Assembly (NCBI GenBank): GCA_963725665.1
Contig: CAVRZA010000011.1
Coordinates: 480,001-544,000 of the forward strand
Direction of reading: 5' to 3'
Source: an uncultured Actinomycetes bacterium
GTDB lineage: Bacteria; Actinomycetota; Thermoleophilia; UBA2241
DNA length: 64,000 nucleotides
A model generated the notes under the pieces. The model saw only the letters and a list, made by a program, of their open reading frames with translations. It was not told where the DNA came from and did no database searches. The translations under genes were made by a program, and so were the position numbers. Numbering within the stretch: the stretch's first letter is position 1; every line of letters begins with the position of its first letter. Shown here piece by piece: positions 2,531 to 10,354 of this stretch.

Positions 2531-3301
2531 GTGACCATCCGCCTCCTAGGATTGAACTTCAGCCCACGTTCGGGGAGCAACAGCGGTCTGCTGTTGCGGC
2601 GTTCATTGGAACGCCTCGGTGAAGCGTACCCGGGTGAGGTCGAGCACGAGGTCATCGATCTGCGCGACCTGCAGATCCTGCCGTGCAAGGCGTGCGACGT
2701 GTGCGGCAAGACGAAGGACGGGCGCTACATCGACTGCGTGCGTGTGCACGAGGACGACGCGCAGGGCGTCCTCGACGCCATGGTGGCGGCCGACGGCCTC
2801 CTCATCGGTACCCCCGTCTACTTCGGTCTGCCCTCGGACCTGTTCTCGAGGTTCATCATGCGCACGCGTCCGCTGCGGCATCAGGACTTTAGGCTCGCCA
2901 ATCGCCCGGTCGGAGTCATGGCCATCGCCGGACGCCGCTCGGGCGGCGCCGAGACGACCATCATGTCGGCTTGGCTGCCGTTCATCCGCAACGGCTGTCT
3001 CATCGTCGGCAACGGCGACGCCACGTGCCAGTTCGGCGCCATGGGCTGGGCCGGCAAGAGAGGCGACATCCTGACCGACGAGTGGGGCATGGAGCAGGGC
3101 TTCCAGGTGGCCGAGAGGGTGTTCACCGTGGCCAAGCTGATCCGGGCCGGCACGGACACGCTGGACTACGTTAACCTCATGCGCTTCTCCTACGAATCGG
3201 GCATGCGGCAGGTCCCGCCGGCAGCTGCGCCGGCGCCGCCCGCGGCCGAGGGTCGACGAGCCGACGTGCAGACATCCGACCTGATGGAGGACGCGCCATG
3301 A
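2531..3301 (+). CDS. Iron-sulfur flavoprotein / NADPH-dependent FMN reductase family
   Basis: GTG 2531 after GGAGG; FSPRSGSNS, CKACDVC...C, GTPVYFG and GRRSGGAE motifs. Confidence 0.85.
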   Translation: MTIRLLGLNFSPRSGSNSGLLLRRSLERLGEAYPGEVEHEVIDLRDLQILPCKACDVCGKTKDGRYIDCVRVHEDDAQGVLDAMVAADGLLIGTPVYFGLPSDLFSRFIMRTRPLRHQDFRLANRPVGVMAIAGRRSGGAETTIMSAWLPFIRNGCLIVGNGDATCQFGAMGWAGKRGDILTDEWGMEQGFQVAERVFTVAKLIRAGTDTLDYVNLMRFSYESGMRQVPPAAAPAPPAAEGRRADVQTSDLMEDAP

Positions 3302-3549
3302 GCGATGCCGACGTGATCCTGGAGTTCATCCGTGACGAGCTGCTCGAAGACGACGTCGACATCGACGATGACACGTCCCTCTTTCGTGACCAGCTCCTCG
3401 ACTCGATGAACCTGACGTCGCTGATCGTCTTTCTCGAGCAGACCTTCGCTATCAAGATCAAGGCCATGGACATCGTGTACGAGAACCTCGACACGGTCGG
3501 GCACATGCTGGCCTTCATCGACCGTAAGCGGGCTGCGCAGCCCGCCTGA
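3298..3549 (+). CDS. Acyl/aminoacyl carrier protein (DltC-like)
   Basis: 83 aa, acidic, LLDSM phosphopantetheine site, ENLDTV tail; ATGA overlap with the upstream gene. Confidence 0.9.
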   Translation: MSDADVILEFIRDELLEDDVDIDDDTSLFRDQLLDSMNLTSLIVFLEQTFAIKIKAMDIVYENLDTVGHMLAFIDRKRAAQPA

Positions 3550-3589
3550 CGAAGGCCGGCGCGTGGGCGGGCGACGAAGAAGGTAGAAG

Positions 3590-3826
3590 ATGACCGAGAC
3601 GCTTGATCGGACGACCGCCGCGGCGCCCTCTGTTGCTATGCCCGCCGACGGGCAGGCGGCGCGCGCCGTCGACGACGTCGTCGAGCACGCGCGCCGCCTG
3701 CCGTCGGGCTGGTATGTGCTCGGGCTTGCCGTCCAGGTGTTCCTCTGGTTCCTGGTGTTCCTCGGTATCGCCGTGGCGATCGGCGTCGGCGGCCACCTGA
3801 CGGAGTTCCGCTACGTTGGTTTCTGA
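3590..3826 (+). CDS. DltX-like single-pass membrane peptide
   Basis: One TM helix followed by C-terminal FRYVGF (F-x-Y-x-x-F); lies between carrier protein and ligase. Confidence 0.75.
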   Translation: MTETLDRTTAAAPSVAMPADGQAARAVDDVVEHARRLPSGWYVLGLAVQVFLWFLVFLGIAVAIGVGGHLTEFRYVGF

Positions 3827-5345
3827 GACGGGGGTGGAGACGACCGGAGCCCTCCGGCGCCTCCTGGTCGTGGCGCGTGAGGAACCCGGGCGCACGCTGC
3901 TCGTCAGTGACGAGTCGCGCTACACCTTCTCCTCCTTTGTTGGCCAGGCGGCCGCCGTCGTGACGCGCCTGCGCTGCAACGGCTTCGCCCGCGGCGACCG
4001 TGTGGCCCTGTACTTCGACGACTACGACGCCTTCTTCATCTCGATGGTCGGGGTATGGCTCGCCGGCGGGGTCGTCGTGCCTCTCAACACCACGCTCCCG
4101 TCTGACAGTGTCGAGGAGCTGGTCGCCAAGGCCAGTCCGGCCTTCCTGCTCACGACTCCGGCGGCGGACCCCCTGCCTTCGCTTGCTGCCGCTCGTCCGC
4201 GGCGGCTCGTCGTCGATCCGGCCATAGTGGCGCGGGACGGGTTGCCGACCGTCGCGGCGGCGTCGTTCACTCCCGTCGCTCCGTCGGAGCTCGCCGTCAT
4301 CATGTTCACGTCGGGCTCGACGGGAGTCCCGAAGGGCGTCATGCAGACCCTCGAGGGCGTGCTGGGCAACGCCGAGAGGGTCGCGCGTGAGCTCGAGCTC
4401 ACGGCGGACGATCGCATCTTCATCAACACGCCGCCGTATTTCACCAGCGGAATCTGCCACTTCCTCACTCTGTTGAGCGCCGGCGGCTCGCTCGTCGGAC
4501 GGCAGGGGTTCCGCTTCGGCGGCGGTCTGCTCACCGAGATGGAAGAGGCGGGCTGCACCGGGTTCGGGGGCGCTCCGGCGCACCTGGTGCGCGTCGTGGA
4601 TCCCCTGGAGGAGCCGGTCGAACCCGAGCTGCTGCGCTTCTGGGTGAGCTCGGGCGACCATCTGCCGGTGGCCACCATCGACAGGATGCGTGAGATGCTG
4701 CCCGGCGTTGCGCTGTACAACATGTACGGGCTGACCGAGGTGTCGGGGCGGCTGTGCATCCTGCCTCCGGCCGAGGTCGACCGCAGGCGCGACTCCGTGG
4801 GCCGGCCGATCGAGGGCATGCGCGCGAGCGCGCGGCGCGACGACGGCTCGCCGGCCTCGCCGGGCGAGGCCGGCGAGCTCTACGTCGAGGGCGACCTTCT
4901 GATGCAGGGCTACCTCGACGAGCCGCTGCTCACCGAAGAGGCTCTCACCGGTTGCGGCTTCCGCACCGGCGACGTCGGCCACGTCGATGACGACGGCTAC
5001 GTTTGGGTCACCGGGCGCAAGGACGACATCTTCAAGCGCGGCGGCGAGAAGGTCTCGGCCGTACACATCCAGCAGGCGATCGCGGCGACCGGCACCGTCG
5101 TCGACGCCGTCGTGCTGGCCCTCGACGACGAGCTTCTCGGCAAGGTGCCCGTCGCCTTCGTGGTGCCGGTCGCCCCGGAGTCGTTCACCGTGCGCGGGCT
5201 GATGAAGGAGCTCAAGAGACGGGTCCAACCGGCCTGGCTTCCGGCCCGCGTGGTCGTGCTCGCTGAGATCCCGCGGACGGGATCGGGTAAGGCCGTGCGC
5301 GCCAGGCTCCTGGAGCACGCAGAAGCGGCGGGGCCGCAGCGGTGA
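3816..5345 (+). CDS. Class I adenylate-forming enzyme (acyl--carrier protein/CoA ligase)
   Basis: FTSGSTGVPKG, YGLTE, FRTGD and PRTGSGK motifs. Confidence 0.9.
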   Translation: MVSETGVETTGALRRLLVVAREEPGRTLLVSDESRYTFSSFVGQAAAVVTRLRCNGFARGDRVALYFDDYDAFFISMVGVWLAGGVVVPLNTTLPSDSVEELVAKASPAFLLTTPAADPLPSLAAARPRRLVVDPAIVARDGLPTVAAASFTPVAPSELAVIMFTSGSTGVPKGVMQTLEGVLGNAERVARELELTADDRIFINTPPYFTSGICHFLTLLSAGGSLVGRQGFRFGGGLLTEMEEAGCTGFGGAPAHLVRVVDPLEEPVEPELLRFWVSSGDHLPVATIDRMREMLPGVALYNMYGLTEVSGRLCILPPAEVDRRRDSVGRPIEGMRASARRDDGSPASPGEAGELYVEGDLLMQGYLDEPLLTEEALTGCGFRTGDVGHVDDDGYVWVTGRKDDIFKRGGEKVSAVHIQQAIAATGTVVDAVVLALDDELLGKVPVAFVVPVAPESFTVRGLMKELKRRVQPAWLPARVVVLAEIPRTGSGKAVRARLLEHAEAAGPQR

Positions 5346-6625
5346 GGATCTACTTCACGCTCTACATCATCCCCGTGGTCGCCGTTGCGCTGCTGCTCTA
5401 CTGGGGCCCGTTGCGGGGCGAGAGGAGACGTCTGGCGCTCATCATCGTCACCTCGTTCGCCGTACTGGCGCTGCTGCACCCCGTCTTCGTGGTCGTCGTG
5501 CTCGGCCTGGCCTTCTTCACGCACCGCCTCGTGGAGTGGCGCAAGAACGGACGGCTGTCCGTGGGCCAGGTGCTCGTCATGGCGATCTCGCTGGCCGTCG
5601 TGGTGCTCGGCGTAGGCAAGTACGGACACGCGGGGGCACAGGCGCTCTGGGGCCAGAACGACTGGGTGGCACAGCACCTGCTGATGCCCCTGGGGATCAG
5701 CTACTTCGTCTTTCGTCTCCTGCAGTACGTCTTCGACCAGGTCCGCGGGGTCATCACCGAGAACTCCTTCTTCAAGCTGCTGGCCTTCCTGCTCTGGCTT
5801 CCGACCTTCCCCGCCGGTCCGCTCGAGACCTACCAGGGGTTCTACGGCAAGCGCAGCCTCTCGCCCGACCGAGAGCTGGTCTACGCGAGCATCAGGCGCA
5901 TCGTCTTGGGGTACTTCAAGAAGGCCTTCGTGATCGATCTCCTCTTCCCGATCATGTTCGGGAACCTCACGACGACCGTGCTGGCGCGCAACTACGCGCC
6001 GTCGTCCGAGCCGCCCCTGACGTCACTGGCCTTCGTGATCGTGATGTTCCTGCGCGCGTACCTCGACCTCTCTGCCTACACCGACCTCGCCATCGGTTTC
6101 TCGGGACTCTTCGGCTTCCGCATCATGGAGAACTTCCATCGGCCGCTGGTGCAGAAGAACCTCTCGGAGTTCTGGCAGAGCTACCACATCAGCCTGTCGA
6201 CCTGGTGCCGCAACAACGTGTACTTTCCCGTCTTCGGCCTCACCCGCAAGGCGTGGGTCGGGCTCTACGCCTCGATGCTGACCATGGGTCTCTGGCACTA
6301 CGTGAACCTGAACTGGACGTTCTGGGCGCTCTGGCACGCCTCGGGGCTCGTCGTGGTGTCGCGCTGGAAGCAGTACCAGAGGAGCCGGCGCAAGGCGAAG
6401 AAGCGGGCGCTGGCGGTCCCCGAGACGGCGCCGGTGAGCGTCGGCTCCTACCTGTTTGCACTCCCGGCGAGCAAGAAGATGGTGTTCTGGTGGCCCTACG
6501 TGGTCACCTTCCTCTACGTCTCGGTCGGGTACTCGTTCGCGGCGACCCATACGTTTGGCAAGGCCGTCACCGTCTTTGCGTGGTGCTTCTACGGACCGGC
6601 GCTGTGGCTCTTCCACCTCATCTAG
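5342..6625 (+). CDS. MBOAT family O-acyltransferase (DltB/AlgI-like)
   Basis: PLGISY, AGP, DLSAYTDLAIG, ENF, FWQSYHISLSTW and GLWH (catalytic His). Confidence 0.93.
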   Translation: MRIYFTLYIIPVVAVALLLYWGPLRGERRRLALIIVTSFAVLALLHPVFVVVVLGLAFFTHRLVEWRKNGRLSVGQVLVMAISLAVVVLGVGKYGHAGAQALWGQNDWVAQHLLMPLGISYFVFRLLQYVFDQVRGVITENSFFKLLAFLLWLPTFPAGPLETYQGFYGKRSLSPDRELVYASIRRIVLGYFKKAFVIDLLFPIMFGNLTTTVLARNYAPSSEPPLTSLAFVIVMFLRAYLDLSAYTDLAIGFSGLFGFRIMENFHRPLVQKNLSEFWQSYHISLSTWCRNNVYFPVFGLTRKAWVGLYASMLTMGLWHYVNLNWTFWALWHASGLVVVSRWKQYQRSRRKAKKRALAVPETAPVSVGSYLFALPASKKMVFWWPYVVTFLYVSVGYSFAATHTFGKAVTVFAWCFYGPALWLFHLI

Positions 6626-6659
6626 GGCCTTGTCGGCGCACCGGCGCAGGGGTCAGCCC

Positions 6660-7754
6660 GTGAGCCGTCCCCGCCGAGCCGCCTTCAGGCGCGGACTGGT
6701 CTCCCTGCACCCACTGGTGCTGGTCGCGGCGCTGGCCATGCTCGTCCCTGCTCTCGGCGGGCTGCAATACGTCGTGACGGGCGGTCTCTACACCTCTCTG
6801 CCACTCGGTGTGCTCCTGCGCATGCCGCGCGATGACTACGTGAAGGCGTCCTACGATGCCACCATGCTCAAGCTGCACCCGCCCCGGGTCCCCGCGATCT
6901 ACGTCTTCGGCGGCTCCGCCGCACGAGAGGCGTTCACAAGCGATCGGGACCTCGAGGGGGAGATCGCCGCCGCCGGTGGTGGCCAGACGAACTTCAACGT
7001 GCTCGCGTCGAGCAACCAGACCTTCGCTGAGAGCCTCGCCGTGATCGACAATCTGCCGCCGTCGAGACGGGCGATCTGCGTCATCACCCTGAACCAGGTG
7101 CGCTTCGCCTACGATCCCGGCGTGGTCGAGGAGCAGCTGGCGGGCAAGCCCCTGCTGCTCGACAGTCCGAGTCTGCGCCGCTACGTGTTCGCGCGCTACC
7201 ACCGTGGGTTGACGACGCCTACGATCCTGCCGGGGATCCTGGACTTCATCAGCGGCTGGTTCGAGAAGCATCACGGCCAGTTGCTGCGCGGTCACCTGCC
7301 ACGGCTGCAGTACGTCCTTCACCGCTACCATCAGGGACACCAGGTGTCCGATCAGAGAAAGCGCGCCATGGTCGCCAAGTGGCTGCGGGACAAGGGTGGA
7401 CCCGGAGGGACCTTCGATCGGGACTTCCGCTACAACCTCGATCTGCTCGACGAGGCGGTCAAGGCGGCGCAGGCGAAGGGATTCACGGTGGTGTTGCTGG
7501 AGGTGCCGCTGAACCGGGACATCGTGGGCCACGCGTTCGACCGGGTGCAGGGGGTCTACCGTCCGGCCGTCGAGCAGCTCGCTCGTCGGCGCGGCGCCGG
7601 GTACTTGCGGGCGTTCTCAGAGAAGGGTCTGGTGAACCAGGACTTCCGCGACCTGTCCCACCTCGTCGAGTCCGGTCGCGCCAAGTACGATGCGGCCTTC
7701 GTGCGCGCCGTCGTGCCGTTGCTGCAACGCTTGCAGACGCAGCCCGCCGGCTGA
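6660..7754 (+). CDS. DltD/SGNH-like extracytoplasmic acyltransferase
   Basis: N-terminal TM anchor, VFGGS and DLSH (Ser...Asp-x-x-His) motifs; follows the MBOAT. Confidence 0.7.
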   Translation: MSRPRRAAFRRGLVSLHPLVLVAALAMLVPALGGLQYVVTGGLYTSLPLGVLLRMPRDDYVKASYDATMLKLHPPRVPAIYVFGGSAAREAFTSDRDLEGEIAAAGGGQTNFNVLASSNQTFAESLAVIDNLPPSRRAICVITLNQVRFAYDPGVVEEQLAGKPLLLDSPSLRRYVFARYHRGLTTPTILPGILDFISGWFEKHHGQLLRGHLPRLQYVLHRYHQGHQVSDQRKRAMVAKWLRDKGGPGGTFDRDFRYNLDLLDEAVKAAQAKGFTVVLLEVPLNRDIVGHAFDRVQGVYRPAVEQLARRRGAGYLRAFSEKGLVNQDFRDLSHLVESGRAKYDAAFVRAVVPLLQRLQTQPAG

Positions 7755-7880: not shown

Positions 7881-8624
7881 TCAGCCGGTCCCGGGGGTGT
7901 ACGCCGGCGGAGCCAGGAAGGCATCGATGCGGCGCGCCAGCGAGCGTTCGTCGACCTCCAGCGCCTCGCCGTTGGGCACCCTCATCTCATGGAGGGCCTC
8001 GATGCCTCGTCCCTCGAGGAAAGCGCGCACGAGGCGTATCGATCCGCCGTGGGTGACGAGGAGGGCGACGCGGCGCGTCAGCGCCGCGTCGCGCAGCGCC
8101 TCGAGCACGCGGCGCTGTTGCGCGGCGAAGCTCTCACCGCCGGGGAAGGTGAAGGTCTCGGGGTGCTCCTTGTAGGCCCGCCAGCCCTCGGCGTCCTCGC
8201 GCATGATGTCGGCGAAGGCGCGCGACTCCCACGCCCCGCGGTCCGTCTCCGCCAGACGCTCATCGATGCGTAGCTCGATGCGGGGTGCCGGGGACCGCGC
8301 AGGCTTGCCACCGACCCTGGCGGAGTCGGCTGACGGCTGGGCCGCCTCGTCCTGTCGGTCCGCCGCGCGCTCGAGCTCGTCGCGCATGAGCTCGGCCGTC
8401 TCGCGGGCGCGTGAGAGGTGGCTCGTCACGATCAGCTCGATGCCGCGTCCGGCGAGCCGCCGGCCGAGCTCGTGCGCCTGCTCTCGCCCGCGCTCGTTGA
8501 GCGGCACGTCGGTCCAGCCCTGGCAGCGCACCGGCTCCAGGTTCCAGTCGGTCTCACCGTGACGCACAAGGTACACGACCGGCCTATCGGTCCGTGGTGT
8601 CTGTGCTCGAGTCTCCGCGCTCAC
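7881..8624 (-). CDS. Histidine phosphatase (phosphoglycerate mutase family)
   Basis: RHGETDWN, PGGES and VTHGG motifs. Confidence 0.9.
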   Translation of the reverse strand: MSAETRAQTPRTDRPVVYLVRHGETDWNLEPVRCQGWTDVPLNERGREQAHELGRRLAGRGIELIVTSHLSRARETAELMRDELERAADRQDEAAQPSADSARVGGKPARSPAPRIELRIDERLAETDRGAWESRAFADIMREDAEGWRAYKEHPETFTFPGGESFAAQQRRVLEALRDAALTRRVALLVTHGGSIRLVRAFLEGRGIEALHEMRVPNGEALEVDERSLARRIDAFLAPPAYTPGTG

Positions 8625-8636
8625 GTCGCCCTGTTG

Positions 8637-9590
8637 TCAGGCATCCGGCGCGGGTAGCAGCGCGTGCAGGTTGCGGGCGATGATCGGGGGCGCGTAGTCG
8701 AGGCCACAAGCGGCGAGCTTCGCCCGCGTCTCGGGCGCCAGCGACGACGGCTCCGAAGCGGCCAGGATCGCCCCGCTCTCCGTCTCGTCGAAGAGCTGCG
8801 GCGGCTCGACGCGCAGGGTCACGGGCGCGTTCTCGGGGCAGACCTGCTGGCAACGCAGGCAGCCGACGGCGCAGGTGTGCCAGGCGGCGTCGACCCACTC
8901 GGGAAACGGCTCTTCGCTCTCGTTGACCGCGGTGAGGCAGCGATCGGCGTGAAGGACGAAGCGGTCGCTGGGGACGGCGCCGGTCGGACAGGCGTGCAGG
9001 CACGCCGTGCACCCGCCGCAGCGGCTCAGGCGCTGCGCCTCGAGGAAGACGGCGTCACAGGGGGGCGGCGCGTCGGTCACGCAGGCGGCGAGCTGCACGT
9101 AGCTGCCTAGGCCTTCCACGTAGGCGATGTTGTTGATGCCGTAGCGGGCCAGGCCCGCGGCCACGGCCACCGTCTTGAGCGGGACGCGGGCCTCCGCGGC
9201 GCGGCGGTCGTGATCGGCGAGAGCACCGGCGACGATGGCCGCGAAGCGCCGCGGCATCTCGTAGTAGCCGGCGTAGTGTGGTGGCACTACGAAGGTGTGC
9301 GCCGTCCCGTCCACGATCAGAGTGGCCTGGGTCACCGGGCGGGCGAGCGCTCCGACGACCACCGAGCGGGGCAGCGGCACGTCGCCGGGCAACTCGACGC
9401 GCACCGCCCTGGTGAGGTCGGCGGCGAACGTGGCCGGCAGGTCGGTCGCCTCGATGGCATGGGCGACGCGCGTGCCCGCGGGAATGAGGCGCTCGACGGC
9501 CACGGCTCGCCAGCGCCAGCCGTGGCCGTCGAGCGCCTCAGCGACCGCGTGCCACAGGTCGTCCGTGGGCTGCTGCCCCGCAGACACCAC
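8637..9590 (-). CDS. QueG-like 4Fe-4S double-cluster protein
   Basis: AGLARYGINN, CGGCTACLHACP and CxxCxxCxxxCP (CAVGCLRCQQVCP); start approximate. Confidence 0.8.
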   Translation of the reverse strand: MVSAGQQPTDDLWHAVAEALDGHGWRWRAVAVERLIPAGTRVAHAIEATDLPATFAADLTRAVRVELPGDVPLPRSVVVGALARPVTQATLIVDGTAHTFVVPPHYAGYYEMPRRFAAIVAGALADHDRRAAEARVPLKTVAVAAGLARYGINNIAYVEGLGSYVQLAACVTDAPPPCDAVFLEAQRLSRCGGCTACLHACPTGAVPSDRFVLHADRCLTAVNESEEPFPEWVDAAWHTCAVGCLRCQQVCPENAPVTLRVEPPQLFDETESGAILAASEPSSLAPETRAKLAACGLDYAPPIIARNLHALLPAPDA

Positions 9591-9601
9591 GCGGGACCCC
9601 C

Positions 9602-10354
9602 TCAGTGGAAGTCGAGGACGGTGTCGCCGCGGAGGCCGAGGCGCAGCGTCTCGACCGAGATGACCTCTTCGGGCGGGATGTTCCCCAGGTTCACGTTGCT
9701 GCCGAACTTCTTTATGAACCACGTCTGCTGCGGCCTGTTCGGCGCCTCGAAGAGAAGCTGCTCGGGTGGGATCTGGTGCACGATCTCGTCGACCAGGCCG
9801 CTCTTGACCTCACCGTCCGGGGTGTAGACCCCGACGGTGCCCGACTCGCGCCCCTCGGTGATGACCTTCCAGGCGCCGGCGTCGAGCTCGCGCTTGATCA
9901 AGTCGACCCATCTGTAGGGTGCGAGCACGACCTTGGCGTCCTTGCTGCCCACCTCGGAGAGGACCTTGAAGTCGCGCGCGAGCCGGCGGATCATGCCGAG
10001 CTTCTGCTCCTCTTCCATGGCGATGGTGCCGTCCGAGATCTCCACGTGCCCGACGCCGAGCTCGCTCACTGCGCGCACGTAGTCGTCGACGCGGTTCTGC
10101 CGTAGCGCGACCTCGAAGAGGGTGCCGCCGAAGCACACGGGGATGTCGTGCCTTTGATAGAGGAGGATCTTGTCGCGCAGGTTGTGGGTGATGTAGGAGG
10201 TCCCCCAGCCCAGCTTGACGATATCGACGTATGGCGCCGCGACGGCGACCAGGTCCTCGATCTGCGACGGGCCGAGGCCCTTGTCGAGGATGTGGGTGAG
10301 GCCACTCTCGCGCGGCTTTGCCGTGCGGTCCGGCAGCAAGAGAAAATCGAGCAT
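9602..10354 (-). CDS. comA: Phosphosulfolactate synthase
   Basis: KPR-SGLT, DKG, KLGWGTS, GGTLFE, EVGSK, EGRESG, FEAP, VNLGNI and LRLGLRGDT motifs. Confidence 0.95.
   Translation of the reverse strand: MLDFLLLPDRTAKPRESGLTHILDKGLGPSQIEDLVAVAAPYVDIVKLGWGTSYITHNLRDKILLYQRHDIPVCFGGTLFEVALRQNRVDDYVRAVSELGVGHVEISDGTIAMEEEQKLGMIRRLARDFKVLSEVGSKDAKVVLAPYRWVDLIKRELDAGAWKVITEGRESGTVGVYTPDGEVKSGLVDEIVHQIPPEQLLFEAPNRPQQTWFIKKFGSNVNLGNIPPEEVISVETLRLGLRGDTVLDFH

Follow-up and report, generated by a model that had tools for sequence, protein, structure and literature searches.

A six-gene operon in a 64,000-nucleotide window of an uncultured Thermoleophilia bacterium (contig CAVRZA010000011.1, positions 480,001 to 544,000, forward strand) probably encodes an acyl relay of the Dlt type. 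In this relay a carrier protein would feed a pair made of an MBOAT and an SGNH protein, and the acyl group carried would be something other than D-alanine. The operon consists of six head-to-tail open reading frames (ORFs) on the + strand which fill positions 2531-7754 of the window. The original prediction, six tightly packed genes in a Dlt-like architecture that includes a DltX-type microprotein, holds for this strand and interval. The genes are the following.

2531-3301, + strand: flavoprotein, 256 aa, GTG start (PF03358 FMN_red, E 1.8e-20)
3298-3549, + strand: carrier protein, 83 aa (PF00550, E 2.5e-8)
3590-3826, + strand: DltX-like microprotein, 78 aa, ending in LTEFRYVGF at the stop codon
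3816-5345, + strand: ANL ligase, 509 aa, TTG start at 3816 with an alternative GTG at 3837 (AMP-binding, E 2.9e-64, and AMP-binding_C)
5342-6625, + strand: DltB-like MBOAT, 427 aa (PF03062, E 5e-14)
6660-7754, + strand: SGNH protein, a DltD analogue by predicted fold and catalytic residues, 364 aa, GTG start

Neighbouring genes overlap by 4 nt at the flavoprotein/carrier and ligase/MBOAT junctions and by 11 nt at the microprotein/ligase junction. The remaining gaps measure 34-40 nt, the GTG of the SGNH gene lying 34 nt past the MBOAT stop codon. A GGAGGG ribosome-binding site is located 9-14 nt ahead of the flavoprotein GTG at 2531. Scans of the operon region revealed no sigma-70 consensus, terminator or Rfam match. 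The host genome comprises 3.73 Mb on 12 contigs and is 97.5% complete; close relatives of its proteins are found in metagenome-assembled genomes (MAGs) labelled Thermoleophilia.

The ligase is not a DltA. It is 25% identical to the Bacillus enzyme and scores 118.3 bits with the DltA model TIGR01734, the cut-off of which is 559.85. The dlt operon of Bacillus sp. N5-665 (5.5-Mb record, locus L122), located with the DltA model, served as a yardstick. In this record the true DltA scores 709.5 bits, four matches to A domains of nonribosomal peptide synthetases (NRPSs) reach 294.7-314.3 bits, and eleven weaker near-full-length matches range from 76.7 to 135.8 bits; those sampled among the eleven are named acyl-CoA ligases. 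The operon ligase falls inside this last range and is therefore as distant from DltA as a generic acyl-CoA ligase. With NCBIfam, the yardstick operon gives 794.2 (NF003417) and 709.9 bits for DltA, 514.6 for DltB, 132.7 for DltC and 435.9 for DltD. Another Bacillus candidate for the dlt locus, the MBOAT match H22, was discarded when it proved to be of the AlgI type.

Other models point the same way. The amino-acid-adenylation model AA-adenyl-dom (TIGR01733) gives the ligase 205 bits, below a cut-off of 317.4 that Bacillus DltA passes with 353.6 bits, and two Bacillus NRPS domains score 433.8 and 446.8 bits. The best NCBIfam score is that of the long-chain-fatty-acid-CoA ligase PRK06187 (247.8 bits, cut-off 476), close to that of the exosortase-associated ligase_PEP_1 (242.7 bits, cut-off 592), both below threshold.

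The original prediction had pointed to the segment PPYFTSG as lacking the amino-binding Asp of the A4 motif, and this is what the alignments show. FTSG is aligned with FDLS of Bacillus DltA, and PPYFTSG with F-D-I-S of the A domain of gramicidin synthetase LgrA, which places a Thr at the Asp position. In a multiple alignment this column contains Thr in all six rows of the ligase family, Asp in the six DltA/NRPS rows (6/6), His in the acyl-CoA-ligase/MenE-type rows (8/8) and Trp in the Acs/MbcS rows (4/4). The motif PPYFTS[GS] is present in 118 of 120 ligase-family members among the matches listed (53-100% identity), the two members without a counted motif having no match to the A3 anchor pattern. 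The A5 (YGLTE), A8 (GRKDDIFKRGGEKV, with the short form GGEKV) and A10 (PRTGSGK) motifs follow the acyl-CoA-ligase pattern; the NRPS pattern used for comparison is YGPTE, GRxDxQVKIRGxRIE and PxTxNGK.

A quick IQ-TREE phylogeny of 32 rows, with SH-aLRT support only and long branches flagged, groups the ligase family (12 Thermoleophilia rows together with clusters P0215 and P0240) in its own clade with a support of 100 and a long stem. DltA and the NRPS A domains form a separate clade, also with a support of 100, and the Acs group and the acyl-CoA-ligase/MenE group constitute two further groups. The ligase thus groups with DltA neither by model score nor in this tree, as had been anticipated. 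P0215 and P0240 (48-49% identity) were the useful yield of a representative-library search with the ligase, dominated by giant NRPSs with summed multi-domain scores. When the ligase is used as query, two more ANL enzymes and no others are detected in the host genome, each of Acs type. The enzyme represents an isolated ANL clade with acyl-CoA-ligase-type core motifs and without the amino-binding Asp. Because the residue that holds the amino group is missing and A5, A8 and A10 are of the acyl-CoA-ligase type, the likeliest cargo is a non-amino carboxylic acid.

The carrier protein and the microprotein are both short and retain the residues expected to bear the acyl group. In the carrier, the phosphopantetheine-site serine lies within LLDSM, and D35 and S36 are invariant in 14 orthologs. 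Its best NCBIfam match is an ornithine-lipid acyl carrier protein (39.3 bits), followed by DltC (31.5 bits, E 1.3e-7), both below cut-off: the two DltC models give 31.5 bits for a cut-off of 68 and 19.8 bits for a cut-off of 52.35. BLASTP against Bacillus DltC produced no meaningful match. The microprotein is composed of a variable N-terminus, one hydrophobic/transmembrane helix and the C-terminal FRYVGF. Alignment of 12 microproteins, one of them from a 33%-GC metagenome contig, shows no variation at E72, F73, R74, Y75, V76 and F78, nor at G45, Q49, W53, L55 and F57 of the helix. An exact pattern scan detected small ORFs closed by an FRYVGF-type C-terminus both here and at 11 of 14 related loci (described below), and tblastn detected the gene in all 14. 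Pfam searches of the 12 microproteins at E<=10 gave nothing beyond chance-level matches. According to PMC12148441, DltB moves D-Ala from DltC to the Tyr of the FXYXXF motif of DltX, from which DltD takes over. FRYVGF fits this acyl-shuttle motif as it is defined in the same source, and by analogy Tyr75 is the predicted shuttle residue.

The only NCBIfam match of the operon MBOAT is DltB (TIGR04091), at 132.5 bits for a cut-off of 375, which makes the protein DltB-like rather than a DltB equivalog. It matches the DltB structures 6bug and 8jem with E 1e-26 and is 27% identical to Bacillus DltB over 259 residues, the catalytic His being aligned (GLWH with GIWH). Its C-terminus (LWLFHLI) carries no fused FxYxxF motif, and neither does that of the true Bacillus DltB. 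The protein therefore combines the traits of DltB, namely a catalytic His, the lack of a fused motif and a separate microprotein. A second MBOAT of the host (contig 8, 30% identical) terminates in FLYFQF, and the AlgI-like MBOAT of Bacillus in FIYFRF. The gene for this second MBOAT (465 aa; contig 8, L036:8296-10918, - strand) adjoins that of an unassigned 404-aa membrane-anchored protein, and the two look like an acyl-CoA-fed O-acylation pair of the PatA/PatB or AlgI/AlgJ type.

The SGNH protein has no Pfam or NCBIfam match, including to the DltD model TIGR04092. Across 23 orthologs and paralogs, G84-G85-S86, D331 and H334 do not vary and N285 hardly does (SGNH blocks I, V and III); Ser86, Asp331 and His334 are the predicted catalytic triad. 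The AlphaFold (AF2) model is of high quality (pLDDT 92.3, predicted TM-score 0.90) and includes an N-terminal helix at residues 18-41. When this model is compared with the PDB using Foldseek, the top seven matches are Enterococcus and Streptococcus DltD chains (E 2.9e-5 to 7.5e-4), with TM-scores of only 0.37-0.42, and SGNH esterases of ordinary type rank below them. VIA-align places TesA best (Z 16.1 over 167 residues); DltD obtains Z 13.8 and 13.5 over 247-251 residues, the longest aligned stretches. The family profile reaches no better than E 0.26 with PDB sequences, and hhalign of the family with Bacillus DltD returns a probability of 0.07%. Judging from the model, the protein is best described as analogous to DltD in its fold, its membrane anchor, its catalytic residues and the place of its gene, but outside the DltD sequence family. 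Of the earlier designation 'DltD/SGNH-like', the fold and the catalytic residues are thus retained and membership in the sequence family is not.

Three further DltD-like genes, 40%, 34% and 29% identical, are located away from the operon in the host genome. The first adjoins an MMPL transporter. The second (contig 6, L035:9208-10278, - strand) is inserted between rplM-rpsI and glmM, with glmS further on. This glmM-linked copy has orthologs of 55-58% identity in six related genomes, and in at least one of them (G022) it lies beside the operon.

The operon is conserved in the family. MBOAT orthologs (E<=1e-60) are present in 20 of the 24 other family genomes, 19 of them full-length (55-60% identity) and one in pieces, and in none of 16 genomes from other families of the class. 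Fourteen loci around these orthologs, from 13 related genomes, were searched with tblastn. Ligase, carrier and microprotein genes are found in 14/14 and the flavoprotein gene in 13/14; the exception, L023, lacks it in the 4.7 kb upstream. One or more DltD-like genes are present in 12 of the 14, and their number reaches five in L015 and four in L014. A scan with the flavoprotein alignment, limited to one genome per species, yielded 80 loci, 69 of which are of the Thermoleophilia type. These 69 are labelled Thermoleophilia, Actinomycetes or Actinomycetota, plus one Krumholzibacteriia and one Gemmatimonadaceae on short contigs. Carrier and microprotein genes follow the flavoprotein gene in 68 of the 69 loci and the ligase gene is present in 65; three of the misses correspond to contig ends (L042, L057, L074) and the fourth, L101, is a lone second copy. 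Since the same set recurs in 14/14 and 68/69 loci, the arrangement is not due to chance, and the proposed co-occurrence of these genes in related genomes is confirmed.

The four family genomes without an MBOAT ortholog (G001, G006, G010 and G018, the last a one-contig, 98%-complete genome of 1.7 Mb) are also without a DltD-like match (E<=1e-20), and the other 20 have both. This joint presence and absence is a pattern and not a statistic because the family genomes are kin. A phylum-wide sample of 300 other genomes yielded no match to the ligase at E<=1e-60, the scoring being limited to five candidates per genome.

Several loci show individual rearrangements. G024 carries two nearly identical whole operons on contigs 1 and 3 (L020, L021), one of them with a DltD-like gene split in two ORFs, which reflects either a recent duplication or a redundant assembly. 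A 6.9-kb Thermoleophilia MAG contig (L073) includes tandem partial copies, in the order carrier, microprotein, ligase, DltD-like, MBOAT and then flavoprotein, carrier, microprotein, DltD-like. The short contigs labelled Krumholzibacteriia and Gemmatimonadaceae (L074, L093) bear operon fragments with 68-69% identity, for which a binning error is the likeliest explanation.

The nearest ligase cluster outside the family, P0215, originates from a 10.7-kb metagenome contig with 33% GC. Its ligase is 46-48% identical and retains PPYFTSG. The contig also encodes a carrier (46%), a microprotein ending in NEFRYVGF at the stop codon, an MBOAT (36%) and a DltD-like ORF with GGS and DxxH, together with a 604-aa GDSL protein and a DegT aminotransferase. 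The flavoprotein was not found on these 10.7 kb. Directly upstream of the carrier and ligase genes, and co-directional with them, are the genes TctC-TctB-TctA of a tripartite tricarboxylate transporter. Their position is a hint of a carboxylate cargo. It would fit a scheme in which the gene that precedes carrier and ligase acts as a supply module for a carboxylic acid, an importer there and a reductase here.

The flavoprotein is the best-conserved protein of the operon set (65-76% identity). It has a flavodoxin-type FMN_red fold, with a core of about 228 aa in the orthologs for 256 aa here, and an Isf-like cysteine pattern, C-x2-C-x2-C-x10-C. C52, C55, C58, C69 and C156, together with the SPRxxSNS loop, are invariant in 13 flavoproteins, and the Fe-S character of the protein is inferred from the four invariant Cys of the pattern. 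In Isf proteins the corresponding motif binds a 4Fe-4S cluster. Among solved chains, 7d38, a homolog of flavone ene-reductase, comes closest (34.8 bits, residues 4-114), and WrbA-type chains obtain about 20-23 bits. In the flavone ene-reductase FLR, the C-terminal tail is essential for activity (PMC7862272); the operon flavoprotein is devoid of this tail. Its AF2 model is poor (mean pLDDT 59.6). Complex prediction of flavoprotein and carrier from alignments scored 0.00 relative to a mark of 0.32 and, being without controls, counts neither way.

Flavoprotein orthologs with 60-64% identity were also detected in the 11 remaining loci of the scan, labelled Lentisphaeria, Lentisphaerales, Oligosphaeraceae or Verrucomicrobia. 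None of these 11 loci has a carrier, microprotein, ligase, MBOAT or DltD-like match. The neighbours are instead a sigma-54 response regulator, a glycerophosphodiester phosphodiesterase (GDPD), Lon, an EamA transporter or a radical SAM protein, so the flavoprotein works on its own elsewhere. Identity this high between Actinomycetota and the Planctomycetes-Verrucomicrobia-Chlamydiae (PVC) group suggests horizontal transfer of the gene. Two of the loci, L116 (6572-12864) and L107, share a run of sigma-54 regulator, flavoprotein (61-62%), GDPD, Lon and EamA genes; Pfam confirmed Lon and EamA in both, and the regulator and GDPD in L116 only.

These observations bear on whether the flavoprotein is a working part of the pathway that reduces or tailors the carrier-bound acyl group, a redox-processed acid being then transferred, as the original prediction had suggested. 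Its place as first gene of the operon, with a stop codon overlapping the carrier start, its presence in 13/14 related loci, the carrier and microprotein genes that follow it in 68/69, its high conservation and a nearest solved relative in an FMN ene-reductase family are all consistent with such a role. However, unrelated neighbours surround its orthologs in the 11 loci without other operon genes, none is found on the contig of the low-GC relative or within 4.7 kb upstream in L023, the ene-reductase match is weak and covers the N-terminal 110 residues, and the protein lacks the tail found essential for that activity. A flavoprotein-carrier fusion suspected in three loci also proved, on translation, to be two ORFs separated by a stop codon. 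Redox processing of the cargo is thereby weakened and we consider it unlikely. Rather than an obligatory part of the relay, the flavoprotein is most likely a lineage-specific accessory that provides or prepares the free acid, or else is a source of reducing power.

Ahead of the operon lie the following features.

2226-2530: presumed promoter region, 305 bp, between the 382-aa ORF (1077-2225, - strand) and the operon
1077-2225, - strand: 382-aa ORF, directly divergent from the operon, without Pfam family
2-952, - strand: Wzx-type flippase, 5' part, running off the window start (Polysacc_synt, E 4e-14)

The operon is divergent from a Wzx/Wzy-type glycan cluster that continues past the window start (L037) and includes genes for Wzx, GT4, Wzy_C, an ATP-grasp-like protein, a GT4+Bac_transf priming transferase and a FemAB/GNAT-like protein. 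The Wzx flippase described earlier as divergent from the operon is therefore present, but the directly divergent gene is the 382-aa ORF, which has only faint matches to SDR-type Rossmann proteins (E ~1e-3). Wzx and the 382-aa ORF were tried as conserved partners of the operon and rejected, as neither has matches beside it in the 14 or the 80 loci. The proposed tie between a surface glycan and the neighbouring Wzx is accordingly weak, this genome being the sole one in which Wzx/Wzy adjoins the operon. Genes for a GT-C (PMT_2) glycosyltransferase, an LPG_synthase_TM protein and an unassigned 254-aa protein occur about 2-6 kb upstream of the flavoprotein gene in 25-29 of the 69 Thermoleophilia-type loci and may form a linked envelope glycosylation module. 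This module is not in the present window. A search of the 97.5%-complete genome for TagF-type polymerases (PF04464) came back empty, although control genomes gave matches; two LCP ligases are present in the host. An extracytoplasmic glycoconjugate is a reasonable guess for the acceptor, and several acceptors are likely because the final DltD-like transferases are multiplied.

A number of points weigh against a Dlt-type relay for a non-amino acid. The reading starts from observed gene content, motifs, folds, conservation and a ligase outside DltA, but draws every chemical step by analogy with DltXABCD, the cargo and the acceptor being inferred. Carrier, microprotein and SGNH protein reach no Dlt sequence model. 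The Wzx/Wzy cluster is not beside the operon in relatives (14 related loci; 80 flavoprotein-found loci). The hint given by TctABC comes from one contig, and some binding proteins of this transporter family bind acidic amino acids. For the ligase itself, the top whole-sequence matches in the PDB are NRPS A domains, led by LgrA with 209.7 bits summed over two domains; single-domain scores are close together (8xjz 177.5, 3wvn 161.7, FadD13 154.6). The 205 bits obtained with AA-adenyl-dom are not small, and the quick tree, with its long branches, does not resolve the branching order of the four ANL groups. Finally, the loss of the A4 Asp argues against alpha-amino recognition of the NRPS/DltA type, and an amino acid could be bound in another way.

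The NRPS matches and the adenylation score also favour true aminoacylation. Under this explanation the ligase would be a DltA-type enzyme that has diverged very far, its substrate would be D-alanine or some other amino acid, and the pathway would make a polymer of the wall or membrane more positively charged, as happens in Firmicutes. Further points in its favour are the same five-part architecture as DltXABCD, the LLDSM context of the carrier and DltC as second-best NCBIfam match of the latter. Against it, the amino-binding Asp is replaced by Thr, in a motif kept by 118/120 listed members, and the A5, A8 and A10 motifs are those of acyl-CoA ligases. The DltA-model score lies in the acyl-CoA-ligase range and far under that of NRPS domains, the adenylation score is under a cut-off that a true DltA passes, and the ligase falls outside the strongly supported DltA+NRPS clade. 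No TagF-type teichoic acid polymerase was found either. Aminoacylation consequently appears distinctly improbable.

A more specific version of the non-amino reading would be the export of an anionic di- or tricarboxylic acid, for example as a succinyl-type half-ester, which the flavoprotein would make available in Thermoleophilia and TctABC in the low-GC relative, and with which the multiple DltD-like transferases would esterify peptidoglycan or several glycopolymers of the wall. It is a speculative proposal to which we give little credence. If true, a Dlt-type machine would here be making the wall more negative instead of more positive, in actinobacteria for which the search for a teichoic acid polymerase found none. 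The explanation that the ligase makes an acyl-CoA used directly by the MBOAT, as in PatA/PatB or AlgI/AlgJ, with the carrier serving another process, can point to the acyl-CoA-ligase-type motifs and best NCBIfam matches of the ligase and to a second MBOAT of acyl-CoA type that places this chemistry in the organism, but is highly implausible given that the carrier is kept between flavoprotein and microprotein in 14/14 and 68/69 loci, that the only NCBIfam match of the MBOAT is DltB, and that this MBOAT has no fused FxYxxF, a separate microprotein being known only from carrier-fed Dlt according to PMC12148441.

In the preferred reading, a carrier-fed relay for a non-amino acid, the ligase would adenylate a carboxylic acid in the cytoplasm and couple it, as a thioester, to the phosphopantetheine arm of the carrier that the operon itself encodes. 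The MBOAT would then pass the acyl group across the membrane to Tyr75 in the FRYVGF of the microprotein. The SGNH protein would take it over on Ser86 and esterify an extracytoplasmic acceptor of the envelope. The additional DltD-like paralogs, of which this genome has three elsewhere and relatives as many as five in one operon, are probably devoted to further acceptors or positions.

On its other side, the operon faces a convergent trio at 7881-10354 on the - strand. The next gene encodes a histidine phosphatase (7881-8624) and is followed by that of a 4Fe-4S protein resembling QueG and reductive dehalogenases (8637-9722) and by phosphosulfolactate synthase ComA (9602-10354; PF02679, E 1e-93, slightly below the NCBIfam cut-off). 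The trio could make sulfolactate, a non-amino acid. It is not beside the operon in relatives, the one exception being three loci with a phosphatase of 33% identity.

In the open-access and bioRxiv texts searched, no account was found of a Dlt-type system that has a ligase other than DltA, that has a flavoprotein or that occurs in Thermoleophilia, in agreement with the earlier view of an uncharacterised modification. The separability of the flavoprotein and the low-GC relative with TctABC are new in this analysis, which also adds the presence-absence pattern within the family, the dispersed DltD-like paralogs and the calibration against a real dlt operon. The system would be the Dlt relay at work in another phylum, with a loader from another clade, an added flavoprotein and multiplied final transferases. 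Dlt logic would then become a general route for exporting activated acids. The operon points to an undescribed envelope modification in a widespread, uncultured lineage of soil and sediment, and the ligase clade marked by PPYFTSG offers a clean handle for a biochemical search of the cargo.

Known systems resemble the operon in part. The flavoprotein shares with Isf and WrbA-like proteins the FMN_red domain, the four-Cys motif after strand 2, which is aligned with the CxxCxxC...C of 7d38, and the SPRxxSNS phosphate loop. It differs from them and from FLR by the lack of the catalytic C-terminal tail of FLR and by chain scores that are only weak. To our knowledge, a fixed linkage of Isf-type flavoproteins to an operon with carrier, ligase and MBOAT has not been described. 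The ligase resembles acyl-CoA ligases of the PRK06187 kin in its A5, A8 and A10 motifs. In contrast to them it remains under the cut-off, carries Thr rather than His at the A4 position and lies outside their group in the quick tree.

PatA/PatB, which act on peptidoglycan, and AlgI/AlgJ likewise associate an MBOAT with an SGNH partner and an acyl-Tyr shuttle motif FxYxxF, as presented in PMC12148441. Unlike the operon, these systems use acetyl-CoA, have no carrier or ligase and bear the motif as a fusion at the MBOAT's C-terminal end (same source). More generally, the same paper describes the other bacterial MBOAT-SGNH systems as devoid of carrier and DltX-like microprotein, with the motif fused to the MBOAT. 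It presents carrier feeding and the DltX microprotein as unique, among such systems, to D-alanylation of teichoic acids (PMC12148441, 2025).

The closest comparison is therefore DltXABCD. The operon differs from it in its ligase, which shares 25% identity with DltA, has Thr for the A4 Asp and forms its own clade; in a gene order of flavoprotein-carrier-X-ligase-B-D rather than X-A-B-C-D; in an added flavoprotein of Fe-S type; and in DltD-like genes that number one to five per locus, with dispersed copies. It belongs to an actinobacterium whose genome gave no match to a TagF-type polymerase, and the cargo is probably not an amino acid. Both systems nevertheless share five parts, namely a ligase, a small carrier, an MBOAT, an FxYxxF microprotein and a membrane-anchored SGNH protein. 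The Bacillus dlt operon is preceded by a 63-aa ORF that ends in FIYNEF at its stop codon, the counterpart of the FRYVGF of the operon microprotein, and in both cases the motif stands on a separate peptide and not on the MBOAT.

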